From positions 1 through 41,135 of the IMG/VR virus record IMGVR_UViG_2909246061_000001: a stretch of DNA of 41,135 nucleotides; one strand, 5' to 3'. Below the pieces are notes generated by a model. That model made no database searches and was not told the DNA's origin. It saw only the letters and a program-made list of their open reading frames with translations. This DNA comes from a virus. Taxonomy: Duplodnaviria; Heunggongvirae; Uroviricota; Caudoviricetes. Positions within the stretch are counted from its first letter, which is position 1, and each line of letters starts with the position of its first letter. Of this stretch, positions 1 through 41,135 are shown in pieces. Position numbers and translations under genes: made by a program.

Positions 1-483
1 ATGTTAGTTAGTAAAAGCAACGGATTTAACGCTAGCGCAGTTTTGGGTAGTGGAAGTTATAATGAAAATAAATCTTCTAAACACATGGAGCTACTAGCTC
101 ATAGTATTTTAAAATTAATTTGTAAGGAAGCTGCATCAGAGACGTATCGCGGTGCTCTTGAAACTTTACAAAAAATGATGTCTGAATGTATATATCAAGA
201 AGGCAACGCCTTTGTCATTATGGGAGCTGGAGAACAATTAAAACGTATTAAATATGAAGTTGGTGAAAATAACTTAAAGGTATTCAACGTACACTTTAAT
301 AATAATCACGAGTTAGTTAGTTCTGGTGAGCCTGACGTAATATGTTTAAGCAAGCAGGTCTGGGAAAATCTTCTCATTAAACTAAAGCTGGAAAACAATG
401 AAAATGTGTTTTCTAAAACTAAAAAATTATCGAATAAAAATAATGCCGATCAGTTTTTTGAATGCGCTAAAAGAAATGAATAG
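1..483 (+). CDS. hypothetical AT-rich protein; start at window edge uncertain; in the same frame as 583..1374 and separated from it only by one TAG
   Basis: ORF track; low GC; frame 1 stays open from 484 to the ATG at 583, so this may be the 5' part of one disrupted gene. Confidence 0.3.
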   Translation: MLVSKSNGFNASAVLGSGSYNENKSSKHMELLAHSILKLICKEAASETYRGALETLQKMMSECIYQEGNAFVIMGAGEQLKRIKYEVGENNLKVFNVHFNNNHELVSSGEPDVICLSKQVWENLLIKLKLENNENVFSKTKKLSNKNNADQFFECAKRNE

Positions 484-582
484 AACCTTTTCGATAATAT
501 AAGAAAAAGTGATTTTCATGTTGGTTTACTTAAGCCAAGTAGTACGCGTAGTGTTATTTTAGAAACGCCGCCAAATGTCTGT

Positions 583-1374
583 ATGGAATCACGTAATTCA
601 TATGAAAACAAAATAGATGAGATTTCATCTTTGTCAGAGTCAAAGGAACACCCCATAGATATTCAAGAAAAAAAAGATGCGTTTGTGAATGAGTTCAAGG
701 GGGTATTATTTGATAAAAATACAAGGTCTTCAGAGCTTCTGTTTAATTTTTATGAGTGTTGCTATAAGTTTTTACCAAGAGCTCAGCCTCAAGATAAAAT
801 CGATAGCTATAATTCAGCACTGCAAGCTTTTTCCATTTTTTGTTCATCTACGTTGACACATAATAATATAGGCTTTGATTTCAAATTATTTCCTGAAGTC
901 AAGCTGTCTGGAGAACATCTTGAAACGGTATTCAAATACAAAAATGGCGATGATGTCCGGGAGATAGCCAAAATTAACATTACTCTCCAAAAAGAAGAGG
1001 GTGGTTTATATAATTTACGTGGATTGGATTTTAAGGGGTGCTTCTTTTCTGGACAGAACTTCAGTAACTATGATATTCAATATGTGAACTGGGGAACGTC
1101 ATTGTTTGATGTTGATACTCCGTGTATTTTTAATACGCCTGCTTACAACAAGAGTAATGAAAAATCATTAAAACCTGTGAGCGAAAACGGTTTAAGTGGA
1201 GTATTGACTGATCGTAATAATAAAATAAAACTCATCACGGGCGTGGCACCATTCGATGATATTTTATTTATGGATGATGACTTTGATGATAGTTCCTCTG
1301 AGGATGATCCCGTTGAGAATAGTCCTGTTGTGACTAGTCCCGTTGTATCAAGTTCTAAAAGCAGTTTTCAATGA
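583..1374 (+). CDS. hypothetical protein with pentapeptide-repeat-like segment (NLRGLDFKGCFFSGQNFSNYD) and acidic Ser/Pro-rich C-terminus; possibly effector-like
   Basis: ORF track; AT-rich composition; no recognisable RBS upstream, consistent with being a continuation of 1..483. Confidence 0.35.
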   Translation: MESRNSYENKIDEISSLSESKEHPIDIQEKKDAFVNEFKGVLFDKNTRSSELLFNFYECCYKFLPRAQPQDKIDSYNSALQAFSIFCSSTLTHNNIGFDFKLFPEVKLSGEHLETVFKYKNGDDVREIAKINITLQKEEGGLYNLRGLDFKGCFFSGQNFSNYDIQYVNWGTSLFDVDTPCIFNTPAYNKSNEKSLKPVSENGLSGVLTDRNNKIKLITGVAPFDDILFMDDDFDDSSSEDDPVENSPVVTSPVVSSSKSSFQ

Positions 1375-1468
1375 TTAATAAATGGCAATTTTTACAAAGA
1401 GATAATAACGTAGATTGAAACAATATGTATTATTGATTGAGTAAACGGGATTATTCTTCACACTACAT

Positions 1469-1543
1469 CCATTTTAGTGTCACTACCAAAGAAAAAGGGG
1501 CTACGTTTTCATGTAACCCCTTGATTTATTTGGTGGGCTGGCA
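1469..1543 (-). repeat. degenerate copy of the ssrA 3' flank: terminator hairpin plus about 13 nt resembling the tmRNA 3' end
   Basis: 1469..1543 aligns with 40013..40086 with a few mismatches (ccattttNNNNNcactaccaaagaaaaaggggctacgYtttcaYgtaaccccttgatttatttggtgg), then diverges. Confidence 0.6.
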
Positions 1544-1721
1544 GTGACTGAATTGGTGCTGTAATTGGTTGAAATATTTCATCTAATGTCTGGTTCAACT
1601 TTCCTTAGCTGCCTGAAAGTTTTTTGATCTTACCCAGCAATAACAGCGTTACGGTGCACCACGCCTGACTGAAGAACTGCGTGCTCAGGGTTACCACTTC
1701 AACGTAAAACCGTGGCAGGAG

Positions 1722-1900
1722 GTCCGGACTGAAAAAACTGGTCAGGACATCATCGGCAGGGAACGCACTGCTAGTCTGTAAACTGAACCGACTGGGGCGC
1801 AGTATGTGGCATCTTGTCGTGCTGTTGGAGGAGCTGTGCGAACGTGGTATTAACTTTCGTGCTCTGGCCCAATCTATATTTGCCCAACAATGGGGGGACG
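1722..1900 (+). pseudogene. internal fragment of a Pin/Hin-family DNA invertase gene, truncated at its 3' side by IS1
   Basis: translation [51 protein letters not shown] matches the intact invertase at 31610..32176 (LKKLLRTLSAGDTLVVWKLDRLGRSMRHLVTLIEELRQRGVNFRSLTDSI); N-terminal catalytic region absent; frame runs into the IS1 end at 1901. Confidence 0.55.
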
Positions 1901-1955
1901 GGTGATGCTGCCAACTTACTGATTTAGTGTATGATGGTGTTTTTGAGGTGCTCCA

Positions 1956-2231
1956 GTGGCTTCTGTTTATATCAGCTGTCCCTCCTGTTCAGCTACTGAC
2001 GGGGTGGTGCGTAACGGTAAAAGTACTGCCGGACATCAGCGCTATCTCTGCTCTCACTGCCGTAAAACATGGCAACTGCAGTTCACTTACACCGCTTCTC
2101 AACCCGGTACGCACCAGAAAATCATTGATATGGCCATGAATGGCGTTGGATGCCGGGCAACCGCCCGCATTATGGGCGTTGGCCTCAACACGATTTTCCG
2201 CCATTTAAAAAACTCAGGCCGCAGTCGGTAA
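1956..2231 (+). CDS. insA: IS1 transposition regulator InsA
   Basis: 91-aa zinc-finger protein [40 protein letters not shown] typical of IS1 InsA. Confidence 0.85.
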
Positions 2232-2653
2232 CCTCGCGCATACAGCCGGGCAGTGACGTCATCGTCTGCGCGGAAATGGACGAACAGTGGGGCTATGTCG
2301 GGGCTAAATCGCGCCAGCGCTGGCTGTTTTACGCGTATGACAGGCTCCGGAAGACGGTTGTTGCGCACGTATTCGGTGAACGCACTATGGCGACGCTGGG
2401 GCGTCTTATGAGCCTGCTGTCACCCTTTGACGTGGTGATATGGATGACGGATGGCTGGCCGCTGTATGAATCCCGCCTGAAGGGAAAGCTGCACGTAATC
2501 AGCAAGCGATATACGCAGCGAATTGAGCGGCATAACCTGAATCTGAGGCAGCACCTGGCACGGCTGGGACGGAAGTCGCTGTCGTTCTCAAAATCGGTGG
2601 AGCTGCATGACAAAGTCATCGGGCATTATCTGAACATAAAACACTATCAATAA
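2150..2653 (+). CDS. insB: IS1 InsB reading frame (expressed as InsAB' transposase by -1 frameshift at the tttaaaaaac motif near 2203..2212)
   Basis: ORF with canonical IS1 InsB sequence (…[29 protein letters not shown]…); A6C slippery run present. Confidence 0.8.
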
Positions 2654-3913
2654 GTTGGGACCATTACCCATTGGGGCATATTTATACTCGTCTATATGAC
2701 AGTTACTTTTTAAAATTTCACCCTTAAAATCCTCAATTATCTCTGAGTAAAATGATCTTAGTGCTTCATTTATTTTGAGATAGCTGTAATCATGTTCTGG
2801 CTTATAACCAATCAAAGTATATGCTCTTAAAAGACCACCAAATCGGGTTCTATAAACAGAAGATGAAGGGCCTGTATCATCTTCATCAATGATAAAGCCT
2901 GATAGTTTTCCATTAGATTCTAATTTTTGTTTTAGTTTTTCTAATAGATCTTCATTAGTCAAATGAATGGATCGGAGCTGAATTATTTCTTGAGCTTTAT
3001 TGTATTTTTTCTTTGAAATAATAGGTTTATATGCCTTGTCACATCTAACCCATTCATGTTTGGGGTTTTTTACAAGCCTACTTTTTAATTTAGATGAGGT
3101 TTTGTTATATATGTTGTTTCCAATATATTTTTCATTTGTCAAAATTTGATGTATTTTTGCACGAGTCCATAATGTTCCATTTTCTGCAGGTATGTTCTGT
3201 TCATTTAATCTCTCAGCAATAATGAATTCTGGGACGTTATTATCTATAAAGAGATCATATATTCTATTTACAATTTTTATTTCATTTTTTGGTCCCGGAA
3301 TTAATATTACCCTATCTGTTTGAATACTCTTTCTTTTGCGGAAACTCAATATTTCTTTAGCTATGCCATTTTCGTCTACTAAAAGACGTCTCAGCCCATA
3401 ACCAGCCATACCGCCTTGATGATAACCAAGCTTTATTAAATTTACTTGCCCTATAAATACCTTATCAGATAGATTCCTGCTGTGATATGCAGCACTAGAT
3501 CTTTTTATATTCAGTATAACAGAGGACTCTAAAGGGAAATCTTTAGTGGGTATAGGTTCGGAACAATATATAAGATCTACACCATTTCTCTCAAATAGAA
3601 AGGAATAATATGCCGCTTCATCACTATTTTGAAAACGACCAAAACGGCTCACATCATAAAATAATACAGCCTGTATATCTATTTTCTTTTGTTCTACATC
3701 GCTAAGTAACTGCTGCAAAGAATGCCTGCCTACGATACTGACTCCGCTCTTACCTGCATCATCGTAGGTATAAGCGATTTCCATATTGTTCTTTTCAGCA
3801 TAATCTTTGATATATTCGGACTGATTATGTAAAGAATATTGCTGATGGTCGGTAGACATCCTCAAGTACTGCGCGACCCTAACTCTATGATTTTTGTCAT
3901 TTTCGCTAGCCAT
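2588..3913 (-). CDS. large serine recombinase (resolvase-type catalytic domain plus recombinase domain); 3' end interrupted by IS1, so the last 27 codons are IS1-derived and the protein is probably non-functional
   Basis: N-terminal YLRMSTDHQ serine-recombinase motif; AT-rich; ORF crosses the IS1 right end at 2668. Confidence 0.6.
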
Positions 3914-4195
3914 GCACGAAACCTCATGGATGATTCAATACAATGTAGTGGATAAAATTGATCAAATTTCAACCGAATTCAACTGTTTTATCATTGATTA
4001 GAGCGAATTTGGTAGATCTTCGAGGTGTATGATAATCGAGAAGAGATGTGAATTATTTAGCTGATATGACCGACAGCTTTCGTTATGTGGACTCAATGTC
4101 CCCATTTGTAAATGGCTATGCTTAGTCCACATAGGTTAATGGTGTGATTATTAATTCTTTAACTAAATCAAGATAGTTAATCCATCATGGGAGAG

Positions 4196-5425
4196 TTATG
4201 CGGCAATAACTTTGCATTTTTGAGACGAAACATAGTCACTCCACCATTGCATGAGAACCACCCGTTCAGTGAGATACTCTGCACGATTGTAGGCTGCAAT
4301 TATTTCATCTTTCTTCGAGTGGGCAAGGGCGGCTTCTAAGACATCAGTCCTAAACTTGCCAGACTCCTCAGCAGCCGTTCTAGCAATGGATCGCATACCG
4401 TGAGCTACAAGCTCACCTCCGAAACCCATACGGATTATGGCCGCATTAGCTGTTTGTTCATGCATGTGATTGAGTGGAGCTTTGATACTGGGGAACACCC
4501 ACTCTCTATGCCCGCTGATGACTTTCATTAAATCCAAAACTCGCAAAGCTTCTTTGCTCAGTGGAACTTTGTGAGGCTTCTTCATTTTCATAAACTCCGC
4601 CGGGATGTTCCACATGCCAGTTTCAATATCAATATCTGACCATCTTGTGCGAACAGCTTCACCTGGGCGAACCCATGTGAGAAGTTGCCACTCAATCAGT
4701 AGCCTTGTTTCCAAACGGATAGAAGCATTGTTTAGAGCAACCAAGAAGCGAGGGAGTTCGGAAGGGGGTAATGCTGGCATATTCTGTTTTTTTGGCTTGC
4801 TGAACCGTTGCCCCAGGTTGTCTGCCGGGTTGAATTCTATGAGTTCTTCTGTTGCTGCATAGCGGAAAATTTCATTCAGGCGGGATATGATGCGGCGAAG
4901 TGTTTCAAGGACACCTCGTTTTTCTATGGGTTCTAAATGCTGTTTAAGCATTTTAGGGCGAATCTCCTTAATTGGGGTATCACCCAATGTGGAAAAGATA
5001 TTTCTCTCTAGGCTTCGCCAGATGTCGTTAGCATGATCTTGGGAGATGCCTGACGTTTTGACTTTCTCATCAAGCCACTTCTTGGCTACTGCTTGAAATG
5101 TATGTTCCGTGGCATCTTTCAGTGCATTGGCTTTTTGGTTGTTATGAACTTGGGGGTCTATACCATTTGTAAGCAACGACAAGTATTCATCACGTAAAGC
5201 TCGTGCCTTCGCAAGTGTAAGGTGAGGATAGGTTCCTAAGCTCACCTTAGTTCGCTTTTTGGTCACAGGCACTGCATATCTGAAATACCAATTTTTCTTC
5301 CCTCCCTTCGCCAGGGGAGCGATTCGCAACAGCAAACCATCGCCGTCAAAAAGGTTAACCTCTTTTTCGGCAGGTTTGGTGCTTTTGATTTCAGTGTCAG
5401 TGAGCTTCTTAGCGATTTTGGCCAT
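4196..5425 (-). CDS. tyrosine integrase, P4/CP4-57 IntA family
   Basis: N-terminus MAKIAKKLTDTEIKSTKP…DGDGLLLRI…WYFRY typical of P4-type integrases; C-terminal catalytic domain with …HGMRSIARTAAEESG… and YNRAEYLTER; probable ATG at 5425 (the track ORF extends to 5506); lies directly beside an ssrA 3'-end copy, as intA does beside ssrA in CP4-57. Confidence 0.85.
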   Translation of the reverse strand: MAKIAKKLTDTEIKSTKPAEKEVNLFDGDGLLLRIAPLAKGGKKNWYFRYAVPVTKKRTKVSLGTYPHLTLAKARALRDEYLSLLTNGIDPQVHNNQKANALKDATEHTFQAVAKKWLDEKVKTSGISQDHANDIWRSLERNIFSTLGDTPIKEIRPKMLKQHLEPIEKRGVLETLRRIISRLNEIFRYAATEELIEFNPADNLGQRFSKPKKQNMPALPPSELPRFLVALNNASIRLETRLLIEWQLLTWVRPGEAVRTRWSDIDIETGMWNIPAEFMKMKKPHKVPLSKEALRVLDLMKVISGHREWVFPSIKAPLNHMHEQTANAAIIRMGFGGELVAHGMRSIARTAAEESGKFRTDVLEAALAHSKKDEIIAAYNRAEYLTERVVLMQWWSDYVSSQKCKVIAA

Positions 5426-5522
5426 GTTTGGGACCCTCGATTTTAGGACCCATCTTCGTGGGTCCCATTCAGGGTGCCATAACTCGTAGTTCTCAGCAAT
5501 TCTCACTAGACTACAATAGACG

Positions 5523-5560
5523 TAAAAAAGCCCGCAGAGCTTGTGCTGTGCGGGCTTAGT
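5523..5560 (-). terminator. rho-independent terminator hairpin downstream (minus sense) of the ssrA 3'-end copy
   Basis: minus-strand gcccgcacagcacaagctctgcgggc followed by tttttt. Confidence 0.45.
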
Positions 5561-5587
5561 AGACTTTACTGAACTTCAGTACATCAA

Positions 5588-5636
5588 TATTTGGTGGAGC
5601 TGGCGGGAGTTGAACCCGCGTCCGAAATTCCTACAT
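5588..5636. repeat. 49-bp direct repeat identical to the ssrA 3' end; left att site of the P2-like prophage
   Basis: 5588..5636 is identical to 40072..40120 and the sequences diverge immediately outside both copies. Confidence 0.85.
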
Positions 5637-5768
5637 ACCATTTTTACTATAACAAAAACATGAACTTATGTTTAAAATCAGTGTGTTAGTATTATTTTGT
5701 GTTTGTCTGTTTTACGCATTTTTAATGCTCTGCCGCCAAAATGCCGCCACTGGTTTTGCTTGGGAGAC

Positions 5769-7289
5769 TTATTCAGGCTTTAATTTATTGATAATAGAAT
5801 CTACCATTTTAATGCCTGCCTCATTGACTATGACTGAATTGACTACTCTATCAAAATAGTCCTCTATATGGTGGGAAAATAGGAAAGCAGCACTTGATGG
5901 TTTTTTGTTCTTTTCAACTGCAGATTGCAAGACTTCATGAGGCGGAATTTTAAACCTTTTGCATGATGCAATGAGATATTCAAACTCTTCAAATGATAGA
6001 CAAAAAATATTCTCTGTAGGGATATGATAGTTATGTTTAAACTTGTCATATATCTTATTCATCTCATCTTTAGCATAAGTATTAGCTAGGATACTACCAT
6101 TGCCTAAGAAAAGGTTTTTATATGTAATGCAAATGATATATGAGTTAGCCCTGAATGGAGCTATTATTCGCTCATTAGAGTATATTTCTCGATTAACTTC
6201 GTGAGATTGTTCGATTGCTTTTAATACCGATTTCTTTATTTTTCCTGCAATATCCTCAGGGCGTAATGTTACCATGCCTTTTTGGTGTATCTCAACGCCT
6301 TTAGCATCAATGAAAATATTTGCCTCAGTATGTGGAATGAAATAATCAACTACTTTATTATCTTTAGGTAGTCGTTCTTTAAGGTATTTTTCGTTATGAA
6401 AATCAATTTCGCTTTCTTTTAGTATTAATTCCAGTGCATTTTCAAATACATTTCCAAAGCTATCCATGAACTTCTCGGCATCAGTTCTTCTTAAAAGATC
6501 ATATATGAACGTCTGTATGCTTGTTGAAGTCAGTTGTGTGTGTATCTGAAAATACTCTGAACCTTTTTTTATTAATGGTTTTTCAAGAAAAGGTGATGAT
6601 GAGTAGTATTCAAGCAAAGGTTTATCATAGGTTTTTGATTTGCAAAATGTAGATAGTTCATTGTAATTTATTGATATTGCATCAAGAAATTTCTCAATGG
6701 TATTTCTAGGAATGATGTCAAATAATATAGTAAATGTATCTACATTCATTTTTCTCACGGGATGCTCTTCTGTTATGTGAGTTATTAATATGTAAGATAG
6801 CTTAAGAAAGTCTTCGATAGATACATTCGTGATAGTAAAAAAACTTTTCTTTATTTTATGGTTTTTTTCAAGTTCTGAAAATAGAAAGACTTGTCTGCTA
6901 ATTGTGTTTAGAGCGTCAATTTTCTGGTAGATTCCTTGTTGGTATAGATTATTTCTAATGAAGAAATGCATGCCATTCTTCCTCTCAAGACCGATAGGAA
7001 TAATGTTCAAGGTTTCATAAGTTTTTTGGAAGAGTTTTATTGCTTGATTTTTATCGAGGATTTTGAATTTTTTATTCTTGCCAGTTACTGACGCAGACCA
7101 CTTTAGACATAAATTAACAATCCAAGGCATGTGTCGTAACATGTGGATATTATCTTCAAATTTTTGTAAGTTATATTGCATACAGAATTCGATAAATAAA
7201 TCAGGGGAATAACCTTGGATTTCTGAACGAATAGCATCCATTCTTAACTTTGCAACCGCATCAGATTGAATATCTAATTTTTGAATCAC
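5769..7289 (-). CDS. hypothetical 506-aa protein; AT-rich cargo gene between the prophage integrase and the left att
   Basis: long ORF with GTG start and GGAGA RBS 13 bp after the int stop; very low GC against the phage backbone; I recognise no fold; possible PD-(D/E)xK-like signature VVDYF…IFIDAKG. Confidence 0.6.
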   Translation of the reverse strand: MIQKLDIQSDAVAKLRMDAIRSEIQGYSPDLFIEFCMQYNLQKFEDNIHMLRHMPWIVNLCLKWSASVTGKNKKFKILDKNQAIKLFQKTYETLNIIPIGLERKNGMHFFIRNNLYQQGIYQKIDALNTISRQVFLFSELEKNHKIKKSFFTITNVSIEDFLKLSYILITHITEEHPVRKMNVDTFTILFDIIPRNTIEKFLDAISINYNELSTFCKSKTYDKPLLEYYSSSPFLEKPLIKKGSEYFQIHTQLTSTSIQTFIYDLLRRTDAEKFMDSFGNVFENALELILKESEIDFHNEKYLKERLPKDNKVVDYFIPHTEANIFIDAKGVEIHQKGMVTLRPEDIAGKIKKSVLKAIEQSHEVNREIYSNERIIAPFRANSYIICITYKNLFLGNGSILANTYAKDEMNKIYDKFKHNYHIPTENIFCLSFEEFEYLIASCKRFKIPPHEVLQSAVEKNKKPSSAAFLFSHHIEDYFDRVVNSVIVNEAGIKMVDSIINKLKPE

Positions 7290-7301: not shown

Positions 7302-8315
7302 CTACAAATTATAAAGAGGATTTTTAGTCACCGCGTCTTCAAGGTGATCGGGCGAAAAGTGGGCGTAAATCATGGTCATTTTTATATCGGCATGACCCAA
7401 AATATCACGCAGTACCAGTATGTTTCCGCCGTTCATCATAAAGTGACTGGCGAATGTATGGCGAAGCACGTGGGTACATTGGCCCTCCGGTAGGTCAATA
7501 CCGGCCCGCTTTACTGCCCGCTCAAAGGCTTTTCTGCATGGCGTGAATAACTTTCCTCTGTTTTTGGGGAGTTCATCATACAGATCCTGAGATATCGGCA
7601 CAGTACGGTTTTTCTTGCCTTTTGTTTTTGTATAAGTAATTCGGTATTTCGATATTTGATGGCCCTGCAGATTTTCGGCTTCACTCCACCGTGCGCCAGT
7701 AGCCAGACATATTTTTGCAATCATTAGTAAGCTAGGGCTTTGAGATTCAGCACATGCCGCCAACAGGCGCTTGATTTCGTCCGTGGAAAGAAAAGCCAGC
7801 TCACCTTCGGCAATTTTGAAGGTCGGAAGTCCTGCCAGCGGGTTTGGTGCTGACCAGTGTCCTAGTTTTTTTAATGTACCGAACACAGATGATAGATTGC
7901 GCTGTTCAAGGTTTACCGTGCGGGGCTTAACGGGCGACATCAGCGTGCCATCTTCATTTCGCACTTCACCTTTTAGCCGTGCTTCGCGGTATTTCGTAAA
8001 GTCACCGGCAGTCAGCTCTGAAGCGATGGGATCGCCCAGACCATTACAGATAATTCCAAGTTTCGCCATGAGTCGCTTGGGGTCTGCGAGTGTTTGACCA
8101 TACAGGGAATACCACAGCTCAATTAATTCTGATAGGTGTCGCCGATCTTCCTTTTCTCCCAGCCAAGGTTTCTTGTTTACCTCGTCCATGGTGAAATTCT
8201 CAAACGCAATGGCTTCGCCTTTCGTCGCAAATTGTTTGCGTACGCGTTTGCCATCTCGCCCGTTTGGGTAGCATTCACATAACCACTTTCCGTTCGGCTG
8301 TTTTCTGATGGTCAT
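7302..8315 (-). CDS. int: P2/186-type tyrosine integrase
   Basis: 337 aa, same length as P2 Int; C-terminal motifs ARWSEA…HVLRHTFASHFMMNGGNILVLRDILGHADIKMTMIYAHF. Confidence 0.9.
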   Translation of the reverse strand: MTIRKQPNGKWLCECYPNGRDGKRVRKQFATKGEAIAFENFTMDEVNKKPWLGEKEDRRHLSELIELWYSLYGQTLADPKRLMAKLGIICNGLGDPIASELTAGDFTKYREARLKGEVRNEDGTLMSPVKPRTVNLEQRNLSSVFGTLKKLGHWSAPNPLAGLPTFKIAEGELAFLSTDEIKRLLAACAESQSPSLLMIAKICLATGARWSEAENLQGHQISKYRITYTKTKGKKNRTVPISQDLYDELPKNRGKLFTPCRKAFERAVKRAGIDLPEGQCTHVLRHTFASHFMMNGGNILVLRDILGHADIKMTMIYAHFSPDHLEDAVTKNPLYNL

Positions 8316-8316
8316 A

Positions 8317-8949
8317 TCAAAGGCTCTTAATGATTTTCAGTGCGCGGCCTATTACCTCAATGTCATCCAGTTCGCACTCAAACGATGAATCATCCTGATG
8401 CACTACTAATCTGTTTCCCGGGAGTCGTGTCAATTTTACAATGCTTTTTATCCCGTCGATGTCCACTAACCACGTACCATTTACTGGTGGTGTTTGGTTG
8501 CGATCTATTAAATAAGAATCACCAGAAGTAGTCACCAGCAGCAGGTTGCTTGAGTCTGAGGGGAGTATGCTGCTATCAATGATTGCTTTTCCAGCATCGA
8601 TCAGCAAACCTCCGTTGAGAGTTGCCTTGTCAATTTCAGGAGATACAAGCTCCGAAAGAGGTTTAACTTTGCTAGAGTTCACGGAATTGATATTTTTTTT
8701 AGGGTCAATGTTTGAACCTGGATCGCCCTGTCCGGTAGTTAGCCACAGTAAAGAAACTCCTGTTTCCAAAGCGCACTGAATCACCCATTCTGCAGGAAAA
8801 CTATCTCTTAAGTATCTGTTTGCCATAGTGCTTTTTGATGCGCCCAAGTGATCGCAAAGTTGCTGTCTGGACTTGAAATCATAGGCTGCCATTAGCCTAT
8901 GGATAGCCTCTCTTCCCCCTGTATTCTCGCCAGCTTTTACTTGTATCAT
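8317..8949 (-). CDS. cI: 186 CI-type immunity repressor
   Basis: N-terminal HTH plus C-terminal region with CALETGVSLLWLTTGQG and TWLVDIDGIKSIVKLTRLPGNRLVV resembling the 186 CI repressor; divergent from the early operon. Confidence 0.75.
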   Translation of the reverse strand: MIQVKAGENTGGREAIHRLMAAYDFKSRQQLCDHLGASKSTMANRYLRDSFPAEWVIQCALETGVSLLWLTTGQGDPGSNIDPKKNINSVNSSKVKPLSELVSPEIDKATLNGGLLIDAGKAIIDSSILPSDSSNLLLVTTSGDSYLIDRNQTPPVNGTWLVDIDGIKSIVKLTRLPGNRLVVHQDDSSFECELDDIEVIGRALKIIKSL

Positions 8950-14516: not shown

Positions 14517-14750
14517 ATGCGCATTGAAATAATGATCGATAAAGAGCAGAAGATTAGCCAGTCTACCCTGGACGCCCTTGAATCCGAGCTTTACCGCAAT
14601 CTGCGCCCCCTGTATCCCAAAATGGTAATTCGCATCCGCAAAGGTAGCTCTAACGGTGTGGAACTGACCGGACTGCAACTGGACGAAGAAAGAAAACAAG
14701 TGATGAAGATTATGCAGAAGGTGTGGGAAGACGACAGCTGGCTGCATTAA
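14517..14750 (+). CDS. DinI-family protein
   Basis: MRIEIMIDKEQKISQSTLDALESEL…KVWEDDSWL resembles E. coli DinI (MRIEVTIAK…); track ORF 14445..14750 trimmed to the internal ATG at 14517. Confidence 0.7.
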   Translation: MRIEIMIDKEQKISQSTLDALESELYRNLRPLYPKMVIRIRKGSSNGVELTGLQLDEERKQVMKIMQKVWEDDSWLH

Positions 14751-14909: not shown

Positions 14910-15335
14910 CTACTTAATTGAGTCCAGTAACAAGTTACAGTTACTCTCATTGTAGAGAGAACGAGCAATTAGTGTTACCTGCTTTCCATTCATTCCCGGC
15001 TTATCCCATAACACAGCTTCTTGCGACGCCACAAATTCAGCATAATCAATTATGCGTTGTTCGTGATCTGGTTCCTCATAGCCAAAGTATGAGAGCGCAT
15101 CGTTGTAAGCGTGGTAAGCTGCTTTCTGTAATATCTTGATATCGGCTGTAGGTACTTGCTCCGTGTAGCTAGGATCTAATTGTGTGCTACTGCCATAGAA
15201 TGCACATGAAAGGTAAGATATTGATTTCTGTTGAGCTTTAGTTCCTTTCTCATAGTTTTTAGCTGTTACCGCCTGAACTGGGACGCTAACAAAGCTTGCA
15301 ACCAGAATTAAAATTAATACGTAAAAGCTTTTCAT
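14910..15335 (-). CDS. small secreted protein of unknown function (141 aa, signal peptide)
   Basis: N-terminus MKSFYVLILILVASFVSVPVQA with probable cleavage after VQA; AT-rich; opposite strand to neighbours; on the A side of cos. Confidence 0.55.
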   Translation of the reverse strand: MKSFYVLILILVASFVSVPVQAVTAKNYEKGTKAQQKSISYLSCAFYGSSTQLDPSYTEQVPTADIKILQKAAYHAYNDALSYFGYEEPDHEQRIIDYAEFVASQEAVLWDKPGMNGKQVTLIARSLYNESNCNLLLDSIK

Positions 15336-15697: not shown

Positions 15698-15763
15698 GCG
15701 CGCTTATTACTTTGATAGTACTCGGGTTATAATATGGATGACTATCTATCTCGGAGAATGTAC

Positions 15764-17416
15764 ATGTCATTAGACTATATTAAAGAACAGTTGTCAGACT
15801 TTATTTCATCTGCAGAACCTGAGGTAATGGCTATTCAGGGTGAGTGGGGGATTGGGAAAACCTATACTTGGAATGCTTTCTTAAAGGAAAATAAAAATAA
15901 GATTGCATTTAATAGATATAGTTACGTCTCTCTTTTTGGTGTTAATTCATTGGACGCATTAAAATACTCCATCTTTGAAAATACAATTACGAAAGATTTC
16001 ATTGGAAACAAACCTAATTTAAAAACAGCAACACAAAATGCAAAGGGGCTTCTTGAATCCTGCACTAGAAAGACCGCTCGTGTGTTAAAAGATACACCTT
16101 TTTTGAAAAATTTCACTACGACACTTGAGTCAATGTCATTTATGTCAATTACTAATGTTATTGTAGTCATAGATGACTTAGAAAGACGTGGTAAAAATTT
16201 AGAAGTGAAAGATGTCTTAGGGTTGGTTTCTTTATTGAAAGAACAAAAAAATTGTAAGGTGGTTCTTTTACTTAATAACGGGACAAGTGGTATGGATGAC
16301 TACTCCACTTATAAAGAAAAGGTTATTGATAGAGAGATTACCTATAATCCTACTCCAGAAGAATGTGCAGTTATAGCATATAAAAATAATTCTGATGTTC
16401 ATAAATTATTAAGCAAATACTCCATTTCCCTGGGTATTAAGAATATTAGGATACTGAAAAAAATAGAGCGGTTTTTGCTAGCCTTGTTACCTGGCATTAA
16501 CGTTAATTTTGAAAAAATTGCAAATGAAGTCGCACACTCCTTAACTTTGTATTGTTGGAGTCATTACGCATTTACTCCAGATGGAGATGTACCATCATTG
16601 GAGTATATTAGAAATATGAGAAATATCTATATGCGTGATGAAAAAGAGGATGGAAAAGAAAAAAAATGGCTTAATACTTTGCTTATATATGATTATAAAA
16701 AAACAAACGAACTTGATGAAGTCCTTATAGACATGGTAAAGCATGGATATATTGATATGAACAATTTCCAAAGGCAAGTAAGTCTAAGGAATGATGAACT
16801 TATCCGTGATAGTAAGCGAGGTTCACTGTTTGAAGCATGGAAGCTTTTCTATAATTCATTTGAAGATAACCGAAATCAGGTTATTGATAATCTATATCAA
16901 GCGGTGGTTGGTGGGATAGAGTATGTAACTCCAAGTGACTTGGATAGTGTTGTCGGACTGTATAGAGATTTAGGTGAAAATATTCAAGCAAGTGAATTAA
17001 TAAGTAAATTTATTAATTACGGCAATGATGCTCTTAAGGAATATGTTCAATCTATTTACATGAATGTTCATCCTATAAAAGATGCTGAGTTAAAGTCAAA
17101 AATCCAAGATTATTCTACTACTTTAAATCTGGATGGTTCTATAAAGGATGTTCTAATAAAATTATCAAGTCAGAATGGTTGGTCTGATAGGCACGAGGAA
17201 ATATTGGATGCTGCCTCAGAGGATGACTACTATGATTTATTTAAAAAAGTCATTCTTGATGGTGGTGATTCAATAATAGCTACTGCTCTTAAGTTTGGTG
17301 GGTATAGCAATGGTTCAGAAAGAATGAAACGCATCGGAGAAAAAGCGAGAAATGCTTTGATAAGAATTGGAAATGAGTCGAGCATTAATAAAATACGTGT
17401 TAGACGGTATTTGTAA
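15764..17416 (+). CDS. KAP-family P-loop NTPase-like protein (551 aa from the ATG at 15764); candidate anti-phage cargo
   Basis: Walker A GEWGIGKT (15839..15862) and Walker B VIVVIDDLER (about 16160..16186) in KAP-type spacing; GGAG RBS before ATG 15764; perfect TATAAT at 15728..15733; AT-rich; followed by a terminator hairpin. Confidence 0.7.
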   Translation: MSLDYIKEQLSDFISSAEPEVMAIQGEWGIGKTYTWNAFLKENKNKIAFNRYSYVSLFGVNSLDALKYSIFENTITKDFIGNKPNLKTATQNAKGLLESCTRKTARVLKDTPFLKNFTTTLESMSFMSITNVIVVIDDLERRGKNLEVKDVLGLVSLLKEQKNCKVVLLLNNGTSGMDDYSTYKEKVIDREITYNPTPEECAVIAYKNNSDVHKLLSKYSISLGIKNIRILKKIERFLLALLPGINVNFEKIANEVAHSLTLYCWSHYAFTPDGDVPSLEYIRNMRNIYMRDEKEDGKEKKWLNTLLIYDYKKTNELDEVLIDMVKHGYIDMNNFQRQVSLRNDELIRDSKRGSLFEAWKLFYNSFEDNRNQVIDNLYQAVVGGIEYVTPSDLDSVVGLYRDLGENIQASELISKFINYGNDALKEYVQSIYMNVHPIKDAELKSKIQDYSTTLNLDGSIKDVLIKLSSQNGWSDRHEEILDAASEDDYYDLFKKVILDGGDSIIATALKFGGYSNGSERMKRIGEKARNALIRIGNESSINKIRVRRYL

Positions 17417-30241: not shown

Positions 30242-30847
30242 ATGATGAATAAAGCTGTATTAAATAGCGAACTCATTGCCATAAAAGCGGGAGACATTAT
30301 CATTTATAATTATGATGGTGAAACGCGGGAATATATTTCTACATCAACTGAATATCTCGCTGTCGGCGTCGGTATCCCGGCATGTTCCTGTTTGGATGCA
30401 CCAGGTATACATAAAGCTGGTTATGCAATCTGTCGCTCTGTAGATTTAAATTCATGGGAATATGTGCCAGACCATCGCGGTGAAGTTGTCTATAGTACCG
30501 AAACGGGAGATACCAGAGAAATCACAGTTCCGGGTGATTACCCTGAAAATACAACCACTATCGCCCCATTAACGCCATACGATAAATGGGATGGTGAGAA
30601 ATGGGTGACCGATACTGAGGCACAGCATAGCGCCGCAGTAGAAGCGGCAGAAGCACAGCGCCAGTCACTGATTGATGCAGCAATGGCTTCCATTAGTCTG
30701 ATTCAGCTGAAATTACAGGCCGGGCGGAAACTGACGCAGGCAGAAACAACCCGGCTTAACGCTGTGCTGGATTACATTGACGCGGTGACGGCAACAGATC
30801 CCAGCACCGCGCCGGATGTCATCTGGCCTGAACTGCCGGAGGCGTAG
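30242..30847 (+). CDS. tail fibre assembly protein (Tfa, P2 gpG-like)
   Basis: C-terminal …[14 protein letters not shown] typical of Tfa; start overlaps the restored end of H. Confidence 0.8.
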
Positions 30848-31247
30848 GCCATTCAATATCGGGTGCTGTTGAAGTATCAACACGCATCAGCAGCACTCGG
30901 TATTTCTTCCATTCGGTGAGAGTTGAAGTTTCTTCATCAGTTGCGATATCAGCATCAACAGCATCCTGACGCCAGGATATTTCACTGTCAGCTTTTTCCC
31001 GTAATTGGGATTTTTTAACTTCAGCAATAGCTATTAATTCCTTTTGGGTCGGCTGAGGAATATCTATCAGTGCTGGTTTTCCATTCAGTGTTCCAATCTG
31101 TTTTCCTGGTGGAATATCCATAAATAACTTTTTATGTTCTTCCTCACTGACTATTACACCATCATCAGGCCACAGACCTGATGCCTCAAATTTTTCTTTC
31201 TCCGATATGGGGAAAAAGCCATTTGCTTTAGCGCTCCATACGTACAT
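30819..31247 (-). CDS. alternative tail fibre assembly protein (Tfa') in the invertible segment
   Basis: opposite strand; C-terminal …[14 protein letters not shown] typical of Tfa. Confidence 0.75.
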
Positions 31248-39224: not shown

Positions 39225-39443
39225 ATGATGAATTGTCCAAAGTGTGGTCATGCGGCACACACAAGGAGCAGTTTTCAAGTAACTGAAAGCACCAAAGAGC
39301 GTTACTGCCAGTGCCAAAATATTAACTGCGGGAGCACTTTTGTTACCCATGAAACAGTGGTCCGGTTTATTGTGACACCCGCACTGATTGCTACTGCTCC
39401 TCCACATCCATTGCCAGGTGGTCAGGGGCATATGAATTTTTGA
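39225..39443 (+). CDS. ogr: late gene transcriptional activator Ogr (zinc finger)
   Basis: 72 aa from the ATG at 39225; CPKCGH…CQCQNINC four-Cys motif and HPLP motif as in P2 Ogr. Confidence 0.85.
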   Translation: MMNCPKCGHAAHTRSSFQVTESTKERYCQCQNINCGSTFVTHETVVRFIVTPALIATAPPHPLPGGQGHMNF

Positions 39444-39451
39444 GAAAGAGA

Positions 39452-39475
39452 ACCTGCTACGGCAGGTTTTTATTC
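39452..39475 (+). terminator. terminator hairpin after ogr (bidirectional; overlaps the stop of the convergent 160-aa gene)
   Basis: acctgc-tacg-gcaggt followed by ttttatt. Confidence 0.45.
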
Positions 39476-39952
39476 ATCTGGGATCTCACCCGTTTCAAGA
39501 AAATGTATAAAGCCAGGCTCATCTATGATGATTGTGCCTTTCATCCTGGCTGCCGATACTTTTGATGGGCCTGCATTGTAACCGCAACAGAGCATCTGAA
39601 GGCTTTGGGTTACAGAGGTTCTTACCGTTAATCCTTGTTCATTCGCCTTATCAACCAATCTTTCTTTATCTGCTTTCTTAAATCCGGTAAAACACACATC
39701 GAATGTATTTTTTTTCGGACCTGACTGCTTAGTGAGATGTGAGTAGTTTTCGGGGAGGAATGACGCGCATTCCTGAATGGCTTGTTCTGGTGAATCGTAC
39801 TGTTTAAGAATGCGGTCTTTTCGGAAGGTTTTTATTCGAACGGTGTTCTTACAAATGCCCTGTATATGATTTTCGCTATAACTGATGCTCTGTATAGAGT
39901 GAACACCGATACGACCATTTGCATTGATGTAAACAAAGTGAAGTTCTTCCAT
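39470..39952 (-). CDS. hypothetical 160-aa protein with C-terminal BRCT-like domain and N-terminal WYL-like segment; AT-rich cargo between ogr and the right att
   Basis: ATG at 39952 with AAGAGG RBS; C-terminal CFTGF…GLTV…GYNAGPSKVSAARMKGTIIIDE resembles BRCT domains; N-terminal VRIKTFRKDRI resembles WYL motifs; low GC. Confidence 0.55.
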   Translation of the reverse strand: MEELHFVYINANGRIGVHSIQSISYSENHIQGICKNTVRIKTFRKDRILKQYDSPEQAIQECASFLPENYSHLTKQSGPKKNTFDVCFTGFKKADKERLVDKANEQGLTVRTSVTQSLQMLCCGYNAGPSKVSAARMKGTIIIDEPGFIHFLETGEIPDE

Positions 39953-40032
39953 GTGAAACCTCTTTGCATGATTTCAAGATGGCGACAGGCAAGATGGACG
40001 CAAAAGTCTGTCGCCATTTTGCCGCCACTACC

Positions 40033-40065
40033 AAAGAAAAAGGGGCTACGCTTTCACGTAACCCC
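40033..40065 (-). terminator. ssrA rho-independent terminator (phage-supplied copy inside the prophage right arm)
   Basis: minus-strand hairpin ggggttacg-tgaaag-cgtagcccc followed by tttttcttt, directly after the tmRNA 3' end. Confidence 0.6.
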
Positions 40066-40071
40066 TTGATT

Positions 40072-40120
40072 TATTTGGTGGAGCTGGCGGGAGTTGAACC
40101 CGCGTCCGAAATTCCTACAT
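40072..40120. repeat. 49-bp direct repeat at the prophage right junction, overlapping the ssrA 3' end
   Basis: identical to 5588..5636. Confidence 0.85.
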
Positions 40121-40438
40121 CCTCGGTACTACATGCTTAGTCAGTCTTTACATTCGCTTGCCAGCTGCGGACGGACACGCCACTAACAAACTAGCCTGAT
40201 TAAGTTTTAACGCTTCAACCCCAGGCAGGGCTTCCACGCGATCTCTTTTGGGTTTGACCTCTCTTGATCCCCGTCCTAAGAGCGGAGGCTAGGGAGAGAG
40301 GGCTCTAAGCAGGTTATTAAGCTGCTAAAGCGTAGTTTTCGTCGTTTGCGACTATTTTTTGCGGCTTTTTACGAGGCCAACCGCCCCTCGGCATGCACCT
40401 TGGGTTTCGCAAATCCCGTCGAATCCAGAATCAGCCCC
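40076..40438 (-). ncRNA. ssrA: tmRNA (SsrA), 363 nt, intact
   Basis: reverse complement reads GGGGCTGATTCTGGATTCGACGGGATTTGCGAAACCCAAGGTGCATGCC…GGACGCGGGTTCAACTCCCGCCAGCTCCACCA, matching E. coli tmRNA end to end. Confidence 0.95.
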
Positions 40439-40652: not shown

Positions 40653-41135
40653 TTAACGGTGGGCGTTTTTCATGATACGCGCTTTATCCACCTGCCATTC
40701 GCGCTCTTTGATATCTGAACGTTTATCGTGCTGTTTCTTACCTTTGGCGACGCCGATTTTCACTTTGCACCAGGCATTTTTCCAGTACAGGGAGAGCGCC
40801 ACTACGGTATAGCCTTCTCGATTGACGCGACCGTACAATGAGTCCAGTTCGCGCTGGTTGAGAAGTAACTTGCGGGTACGGGTAGGATCGCACACCACAT
40901 GCGTGGAGGCCACTGCCATTGGCGTGATGTTTGCGCCAAACAGGAACGCTTCTCCGTCACGCAGAAGGACATAGCTGTCGCTGATATTGGCTTTTCCTGC
41001 GCGCAGGGATTTAACTTCCCAGCCTTGCAGGGCAAGTCCCGCTTCGAACTCTTCTTCGATAAAGTATTCGTGACGGGCGCGCTTGTTAAGCGCGATGGTC
41101 GCTGAACCAGGTTTATGTGCTTTTTTCTTCGTCAT
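40653..41135 (-). CDS. smpB: SsrA-binding protein SmpB
   Basis: 160-aa protein [48 protein letters not shown]… essentially identical to E. coli SmpB; upstream of ssrA on the same strand. Confidence 0.95.

Follow-up and report, generated by a model that had tools for sequence, protein, structure and literature searches.

Introduction

WYL domains are single-stranded DNA (ssDNA) sensors of immune and DNA-damage responses that have so far been known only inside transcription factors or enzymes. Among the closest described systems are the regulators CapW, BrxR, PafBC, and DriD, in which a winged helix-turn-helix (wHTH) domain is followed by a WYL and a WCX domain. The WYL domains of CapW and DriD bind ssDNA, and in CapW the arginines of the RWHVR strand contact the ssDNA and the WCX domain completes the ssDNA crevice (PMC11662680). 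PafBC, too, binds ssDNA through this fold. This study concerns a phage-encoded protein of 160 amino acids (aa) in which a WYL-type domain is combined with a BRCT domain of the DNA-end type, with no other function-bearing part, and whose family is usually encoded beside the immunity repressor. The gene lies at 39470..39952 on the minus strand of the IMG/VR virus record IMGVR_UViG_2909246061_000001 (Caudoviricetes), of which the whole stretch of 41,135 nucleotides (nt) was analyzed (here referred to as the window); all coordinates count from the window start.

The other half of the protein also has described counterparts. The isolated BRCT domain of RFC1 binds DNA at ~10 nM, its preferred ligand being a 5'-phosphate end, above all if this has a 3' ssDNA overhang; at gaps, the isolated domain acts as an inhibitor of RFC (PMC9293009). 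In the WYL superfamily, basic residues and frequently a Cys are found in the ligand groove, according to a 2014 domain survey in which the combination of WYL and BRCT was listed once (Makarova et al., PMC4012209); the pairing of the two domains, called unusual for this location in a preliminary description of the locus, had thus been recorded before. As for the genomic setting, a 2026 survey describes the interval between the integrase gene and the attachment site (int-att) as a minor defense hotspot of P2, and BRCT or WYL go unmentioned in it (PMC13586616).

It is tentatively proposed here that the protein is a non-catalytic binder of ssDNA/5'-phosphate junctions, expressed in the lysogen and acting in phage-phage conflict. 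New elements of this study are a structurally supported WYL assignment, the placement of the BRCT domain in the RFC1/LigA class together with its conserved predicted pocket, the synteny with immunity repressors across repressor families, the independence of the gene from a neighboring GapS1-family gene, and a catalogue of extended architectures.

Results and discussion

Identity and spread of the gene

The open reading frame (ORF) at 39470..39952 was found with the 160-aa sequence that had been described for it, with its stop codon at 39470-39472. The gene is genuine and purifying selection acts on it strongly, as indicated by a ratio of nonsynonymous to synonymous substitution rates (dN/dS) of 0.08-0.11 against its relatives. 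Besides dN/dS, the ORF list, the homologues, and an AlphaFold model support the gene call. A protein homology search yielded 122 homologues at E<=1e-3, mostly 155-175 aa in length and matching over the full length, from many Enterobacterales and other groups. A species-level genome scan contributed 62 further loci in Vibrionaceae, Pasteurellaceae, Pseudomonas, Aeromonas, Cupriavidus, marine gammaproteobacteria, and others, and the full D-ogr-gene-attR-ssrA layout occurs in 170 of 5426 complete E. coli genomes. Among phages, the gene was detected in 28 records (E<=1e-5), e.g., those of 500465-1, Cartapus, and Yersinia phage MLG42. PHROG 2561 matches the window protein over its full length (1e-76), and the current RefSeq name for the gene is 'BRCT domain-containing protein'. 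The two outcomes that were to count against the preliminary description, namely a lack of BRCT or WYL similarity and homologues that occur only as fragments, were not obtained.

The N-terminal half is a WYL-type barrel

Residues 1-54 (39791..39952, minus strand) form a WYL-type Sm/SH3 beta-barrel of five strands. AlphaFold modeled the full protein with a mean predicted local distance difference test score (pLDDT) of 91.7. The N-domain model (pLDDT 92.3; predicted template modeling score, pTM, 0.78) shows a barrel of five strands with two helices after it; the barrel is of the Sm-like SH3 kind by which the WYL fold is recognized. The helices are short (DSSP, residues 55-62 and 67-73) and belong to a flexible linker at aa 55-78 (39719..39790, minus strand). 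The pLDDT drops to 69 at residues 71-80, and the pTM of the whole protein is 0.52, which fits WYL and BRCT domains without a fixed mutual orientation.

At the sequence level, Pfam WYL (PF13280) gave no match to the window protein at E<=10, and it matched 8 of the 52 aligned family members (best 1.5e-5). With a profile of the N-domain alone as query, 829 of 1.84 billion cluster representatives were retrieved at E<=1e-3, 115 of them at E<=1e-10. Among the best matches were 63 longer proteins, 29 of which carry Pfam WYL (best 2.3e-11) and 28 BRCT, and several longer relatives exceed the 21.8-bit cutoff of Pfam WYL. Since a PDB sequence search with the same profile returned just PafBC at an insignificant E=0.8, a fold search was needed. 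This search placed PafBC (6sj9, score 6.2) first, followed by CapW bound to ssDNA (9c5g, 5.9), BrxR (7t8k and 7qfz, 5.7 and 5.6), DriD bound to ssDNA (7tzv, 8tp8, and 9cu3, 5.3-5.4), and CapW (7tb6, 5.3), with generic Hfq/Sm barrels ranking below these regulators. Conserved positions in the family are Y8, the cysteine of QGIC34, and the K41-T-F-R44-K-D-R47-I48 motif. A Pfam scan of the window protein revealed no helix-turn-helix (HTH) domain, the WYL domain starting at residue 1; in the absence of both HTH and WCX, the protein is not a DNA-sequence-specific regulator by itself.

The C-terminal half is a BRCT domain of the RFC1/LigA class

A BRCT domain of the RFC1/LigA class makes up residues 79-160 (39473..39718, minus strand); it has the alternating beta-strands and alpha-helices over ~80-90 residues that characterize this fold. 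Pfam BRCT (PF00533) scores the window protein at 19.5 bits, i.e., below its threshold of 21.3 (E=0.0012), matches 44 of the 52 aligned family members at E<=0.1, and reaches 1.4e-19 in longer relatives. A comparison of the family profile with the PDB recovered BRCT domains from RFC1 (yeast and human, 4e-5 to 1.7e-4) and LigA (5e-5). Both halves of the domain assignment made in the preliminary description, a C-terminal BRCT and an N-terminal WYL domain, were upheld.

In the 52-sequence alignment, T89, G90, and K131 are invariant and K96 is conserved in at least 90% of the members. The FTG (89-90) and AGPxK (131) segments stand opposite the FTG and AGPKK/GQSK segments of yeast and human RFC1, K96 stands opposite the Arg of human RFC1 ERDEAK, and the G-SK of LigA also lines up. 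The 5'-phosphate-binding positions of human RFC1 are said to have been placed at T415, G416, R423, and K458 by Kobayashi et al. in 2006 and 2010. Judged from the alignment, the phosphate-pocket residues of the RFC1/LigA-class BRCT domain are conserved in the window protein as T89, G90, K96, and K131.

The last 72 residues of the protein also match the PADLOC candidate PDC-S48 (1.7e-7). This match covers positions 334-406 of a profile of 411 and is not full-length, and an identification as PDC-S48 was rejected.

Database names as ligase or exonuclease

Several databases give the gene an enzymatic name. PHROG 2561 is labeled 'DNA ligase', as are the RefSeq proteins of phages 500465-1 and PHL101, and the Cartapus protein is called a 'putative exonuclease'; the records with such names are NC_049342.1 gp44, NC_008201.1 ORF34, NC_070909.1 gp32, and PHROG 2561. 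Were these names right, the protein would be a DNA ligase, an exonuclease, or a decayed fragment of one, and the weak NCBIfam matches to LigA and a DEDDh exonuclease could be cited along with the labels. These matches, however, cover positions 548-650 of 652 in the LigA profile TIGR00575 (19.8 bits, where the cutoff is 444) and positions 229-307 of 331 in the exonuclease profile NF004719 (26.2 bits, where it is 389), and the 160 residues hold no adenylation, OB, zinc-finger, HhH, or DEDD region. A decayed fragment is also at odds with homologues that are full-length at ~160 aa and under purifying selection. An enzymatic identity is thus ruled out by domain content, the matches being to BRCT tails alone, and next to no credence is left for it. 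The assignment presented here would correct a widespread annotation, i.e., that of PHROG 2561 and several RefSeq phages as 'DNA ligase' and that of Cartapus as 'exonuclease'.

Longer relatives and modular architectures

Architectures of the longer relatives were derived from local hidden Markov models for the N-domain, the BRCT domain, and an extra domain. The WYL-BRCT pair recurs in 44 of the 63 longer proteins, with Z, transmembrane, or other segments added, and in some relatives either WYL or BRCT is duplicated. WYL-BRCT is a recurrent module and not a fragment of a larger gene. The Z domain, of ~190 aa and with the motif GW.FAVP..F.EALDI...WTQG, is found at the C-terminus, at the N-terminus, or in an adjacent gene (L114:7974-9164, L107:7989-9116, L094:7443-8489, L099:8502-9098, and L143:6587-7036). 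It has no Pfam match, and neither tblastn nor hmmsearch detected it in the window; PHROG 36782 is probably the fused WYL-BRCT/Z form. In 12 of the 63 longer relatives, a hydrophobic, membrane-anchor-like N-terminal segment followed by a basic stretch was recognized by reading the sequences. One of these (P0225, L148:4987-5916) is encoded between a 114-aa ORF and a GHKL (HATPase_c_3) ATPase, in surroundings with Vsr, Dcm, and HNH genes and the gpD end of a P2-like prophage.

The contexts of such variants were again P2-like prophages or integrative islands. One WYL-BRCT-Z form follows an S24 repressor, one N-extended form occurs within the series HTH_3, Flk_N, gene, int, and one C-extended form occupies the late-gene cargo slot after gpS, with a toxin-antitoxin-like pair adjoining. 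In P0128 (203 aa), the C-terminal part of a Peptidase_S24 repressor is joined straight to WYL; this is either a genuine CI-WYL fusion or the result of a stop codon lost between adjacent genes. A class of 'HTH-WYL-BRCT' Rosetta-stone fusions was considered and rejected: the largest class of N-terminal extensions is membrane-anchor-like, P0192 is the only extended form with an HTH match, a weak one, and S24 occurs in P0128 only. Given the membrane-anchor-like extensions and the single, truncated P0128, fusions are not relied on here as evidence for an interaction with repressors.

Position beside the immunity repressor

ORFs were called in the 62 genome loci and in 4 phage loci and compared with the window proteins, and the 60 loci with an intact ORF were counted. 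A same-strand ORF of at least 90 aa precedes the homologue in 43 of the 60, in 35 of these within 60 bp. One BLAST cluster of repressors accounts for 24 of the upstream ORFs; by Pfam, Phage_CI_repr is present in 15 and HTH_3 in 14, of which 8 also carry Peptidase_S24. A recurrent order is cII (on the opposite strand), CI, homologue, optional cargo, and int, with a gap of typically 0-35 bp between CI and the homologue. The order cII-CI-homologue-int was seen in prophages of Providencia, Xenorhabdus, Brenneria, Hafnia, Parasalinivibrio, Acerihabitans, Rahnella, and Aeromonas, as well as in Vibrio phage PV94. In Mannheimia PHL101 the homologue begins 4 bp past an S24-type CI gene, and two further loci (L153 and L155) are clear repressor-adjacent cases. 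In most relatives the homologue appears to be co-transcribed with the immunity repressor, and its same-strand position just downstream implies expression in the lysogen. This association with the repressor, which extends over unrelated repressor families, is both new and robust.

A second arrangement is found in Escherichia, Citrobacter, Klebsiella, Erwinia, Tatumella, and Plesiomonas, where the gene is found at the end of the prophage, the sequence of features being smpB, ssrA, attR, gene, and then ogr and D on the opposite strand. The window, which contains a P2/186-like prophage integrated at the 3' end of ssrA, belongs here. The ssrA transfer-messenger RNA (tmRNA) gene was located by ARAGORN at 40076-40438 (minus strand), with smpB beyond it at 40653-41135 (minus strand). 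The attR core (40072..40120) overlaps the ssrA 3' end and, as their longest common substring, shares 49 identical bp with the attL core (5588..5636), which is a displaced ssrA 3' fragment. On the other side, the minus strand carries the integrase gene (7302..8315; Pfam Int_N and Phage_integrase) and a 186-type CI immunity repressor gene (8317..8949; Pfam Phage_CI_repr 6e-31, Phage_CI_C 4.8e-28). From the att positions and the strands, it follows that the excised circle holds CI, int, a 506-aa GapS1-family gene, attP, and the WYL-BRCT gene in the same orientation, and the claim that the last two genes flank attP was borne out. After excision, homologues at prophage ends are thus once more located downstream of CI and int on the circle. 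The location, which the preliminary description regarded as unusual, amounts to a conserved position in rearranged form. As a standard accessory, the family belongs to the lysogeny module of P2-like phages, where its normal place is right after the repressor, and the WYL-BRCT gene is part of this module and not random cargo.

Other features of the locus had been described earlier and were found as stated. The gene has its own ribosome binding site, the Shine-Dalgarno sequence AAAGAGG, read directly 6 nt 5' of the ATG (39959..39965, minus strand), and is AT-rich, with a GC content of 41.2% against 50.5% for the prophage. It converges on ogr, the late-gene activator (39225..39443, plus strand; from the annotation of near-identical records), and a terminator scan detected a hairpin at 39451..39468 (minus strand) between the facing stop codons. 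On the plus strand the same stem, followed by TTTTTATT, was read directly, and the hairpin is probably a bidirectional terminator shared by the two genes.

In the integrated prophage, the window gene is separated from the CI-int-GapS1 series and lies just downstream of ssrA and its terminator. This intrinsic terminator, supplied by the phage, is located ~90 nt 5' of the ATG (40040..40067, minus strand; 12-pair stem and T-run) and is conserved in relatives from five other genera. In the six-genus alignment, the ATG-proximal segment differs among genera, whereas the terminator and a GTGGCGGCAAAATGGCGRCAG element with GCCGCCA/GTCGCCA repeats (40008..40028) are kept. Similar repeats occur beside attL at 5732 and 5743 (5732-5752), and, to judge from their arrangement around the att core, the repeats are probably integrase arm-type sites of attP. 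The gene starts 124 nt past the ssrA 3' end, behind the phage-supplied terminator, and integration may place it under ssrA read-through.

A DinI-like gene of 77 aa (14517-14747, plus strand; 84% identity to the 'DinI' of Cartapus, NCBIfam DinI 1.6e-10) is placed after gpA, in the slot of the Tum antirepressor in 186-type phages. From its sequence and position, this DinI/Tum-like gene suggests that the prophage has an SOS induction route of its own.

The repressor synteny raises the possibility that the protein is an accessory of the lysogenic switch, i.e., an ssDNA-sensing cofactor whose WYL domain would bind the ssDNA that arises on DNA damage and which, as antirepressor or stabilizer of CI, would tune induction or the establishment of lysogeny. 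Such a role would agree with a gene located right after the repressor on the same strand for 186-type CI, XRE-S24, and short XRE repressors alike, with the joining of an S24 repressor C-terminus to WYL in P0128, and with the fact that characterized WYL proteins are all ssDNA-responsive regulators. The very diversity of these unrelated repressor families nevertheless speaks against a specific protein-protein fit; S24 repressors are already RecA-responsive, and for 186-type induction the prophage has its DinI/Tum-like gene. Moreover, membrane-anchored and tail-region variants do not fit such a role, integration splits the window gene from the CI operon, and P0128 is a single, apparently truncated ORF. 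A switch accessory is therefore considered unlikely.

Neighboring conflict genes and other cargo

The 506-aa gene (5769..7289, minus strand) occupies the variable int-attP slot and belongs to the GapS1 antiphage family (NCBIfam NF047931, 3.1e-128); it has a GC content of 31.4% and no match in Pfam or PADLOC. A two-gene system of WYL-BRCT and GapS1 was rejected on the basis of gene distribution. In Cartapus, a RES-domain gene takes the GapS1 slot between int and attP while the WYL-BRCT gene is unchanged, and the 17 phage records with GapS1 (16 Klebsiella phages and one unclassified bacteriophage from a fecal sample) have zero overlap with the 28 records with WYL-BRCT. The tie between the two genes suggested in the preliminary description was consequently given up, and the GapS1 gene is treated as an independent neighbor and not as a partner. 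As for co-occurrence with other effectors, conflict-type genes do stand beside homologues; a specific link with GapS1 was not found. Downstream neighbors are integrases or variable conflict-type genes (AbiTii, KAP NTPase, DUF4209, DUF7380), and a marine homologue adjoins Mrr_cat, a methylase, and an integrase.

Further cargo is present elsewhere in the window. The gpA-gpQ slot, a P2 defense hotspot on record (PMC13586616), contains a 560-aa ORF (15734-17416, plus strand) and small ORFs, e.g., 14910-15335 (minus strand), and the tail region contains an ORF at 30819-31247 (minus strand). These three ORFs have no NCBIfam match and are uncharacterized cargo. The same ssrA site has another mobile region to the left of attL (1-5587), which looks like tandem ssrA occupancy. 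It carries a tyrosine integrase (4196-5506, minus strand), a serine recombinase (2588-3913, minus strand), an IS1 transposase fragment (2150-2653, plus strand), and DUF5507/DUF5508 genes (1-483, 583-1374).

Position and neighbors also bear on the idea that the protein helps the DNA of its own phage, by binding nicked annealed cos ends or integration/replication intermediates and either protecting them or recruiting LigA or repair factors. P2-like phages have 19-nt cohesive ends, the family is concentrated in such phages, and its BRCT domain is closest to the BRCT domains of LigA and RFC1, which engage nicked/gapped DNA. For a DNA function in the lytic cycle, however, placement in the repressor operon is odd when early or replication genes would be the expected company; the P2 and 186 records are without the gene, and its neighbors are conflict-type cargo. 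A role in own-DNA handling is thus regarded as very unlikely.

Proposed function

The preferred reading, i.e., a junction binder in phage-phage conflict, is a composite one and is given a probability of roughly 0.4. The protein comprises two domains of the nucleic-acid-recognition type on a flexible linker and no catalytic domain. The WYL domain would take the single strand and the BRCT domain the recessed 5'-phosphate end, and candidate targets would be resected ends, gaps, and nicked or annealed cohesive ends. Produced in the lysogen, the protein would act on incoming or replicating foreign DNA; the stand-alone form would occlude junctions from ligation, replication, or repair, and longer relatives may pass the signal on to fused modules such as membrane anchors, the Z domain, or other extensions. 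A role in conflict is derived from the neighbors of the homologues (AbiTii, KAP NTPase, DUF4209, GHKL/Vsr/Dcm/HNH, Mrr_cat/methylase, and the toxin-antitoxin-like pair after gpS), from the slot filled by GapS1 or RES genes, and from the likeness to PDC-S48. If binding of resected or gapped DNA holds true, the family would provide a handle on how prophages read or mask damage and infection signals.

Several points weigh against this proposal. BRCT domains mostly bind proteins or phosphopeptides, and the arginines of the CapW RWHVR strand (R164/R168) have no evident counterpart in the HIQGIC strand of the window protein by sequence comparison. Together with the missing WCX domain, this makes ssDNA binding by WYL-BRCT plausible and not assured. 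The protein has no effector domain, and a defense outcome would hence require occlusion or some partner. Its fixed position and wide cross-genus conservation resemble a lifestyle gene more than a swappable defense moron. Phages 186 and P2 are missing from the WYL-BRCT phage-record matches, from which it follows that the gene is dispensable for P2-type lysogeny. A literature search for a characterized WYL-BRCT or phage BRCT protein returned only the 2014 listing and no study of the family. In addition, no sigma-70-like promoter was detected on the strand of the gene by a scan from the ssrA terminator to the ATG (39953-40075); expression of the window copy in the lysogen would then depend on read-through from ssrA, which is transcribed very strongly, or on an unrecognized promoter.

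The same binding properties could serve counter-defense. By analogy with host sensors, the protein might cap ssDNA or resected ends and so hide damage or replication intermediates at prophage induction from CapW/BrxR-type regulators, RecA, and RecBCD-dependent systems, which would otherwise raise immunity. In hosts, ssDNA is sensed by WYL repressors, and this sensing aids CBASS in blocking the induction of lambda prophages (PMC11662680). A sponge or cap would be expected to look like the present protein, which has a sensor domain of that kind and no output domain, and constitutive expression with CI would supply the protein at induction. Such masking nonetheless rests on analogy, and we know of no example of a protein sponge for ssDNA signals; anchored or extended relatives resemble sensor-effector fusions rather than sponges, and stoichiometric masking of ssDNA by a minor protein would be hard in the face of abundant SSB. 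Masking at induction is accordingly judged distinctly unlikely. It is just as much of a long shot that a cap made together with the repressor blunts CapW/BrxR, RecA/SOS, and end-dependent defenses as a means of immune evasion or lysogeny stabilization; if this were the case, the longer relatives would represent the converse, namely the same sensor wired to effectors.

Comparison with known systems

PHROG 2561, the RefSeq name, and the listing of Makarova et al. refer to the same family or domain combination as the window gene, without a function, the WYL half in the annotation, or the repressor synteny. The likeness to PDC-S48 is confined to the BRCT tail, the rest of PDC-S48 and the WYL domain of the window protein being unmatched. 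As for the WYL regulators, the R-x-F-R-x-D-R-I type strand of the family and the position of its Cys agree with what the 2014 survey described for the superfamily, and ties to phage and defense biology exist on both sides; unlike the wHTH-WYL-WCX regulators CapW, BrxR, PafBC, and DriD, the window protein is devoid of HTH and WCX, carries BRCT instead, and escapes Pfam WYL.

The BRCT domains of RFC1 (N-terminal) and LigA (C-terminal) are the best sequence matches of the window BRCT domain, with which the TG...K pocket and the G-x-x-x-G-x-K signature align, and all three proteins have one BRCT domain and not a tandem. In contrast to RFC1 and LigA, the window BRCT domain has no catalytic ligase or clamp-loader body joined to it, and the identity is just ~20-25%. 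Lastly, lambda rexAB offers a parallel in gene order. The two have no kinship in sequence or fold, and the window gene lies across attP from the CI operon, but rexAB, like the WYL-BRCT family, is located on the same strand as, and directly downstream of, the immunity repressor.

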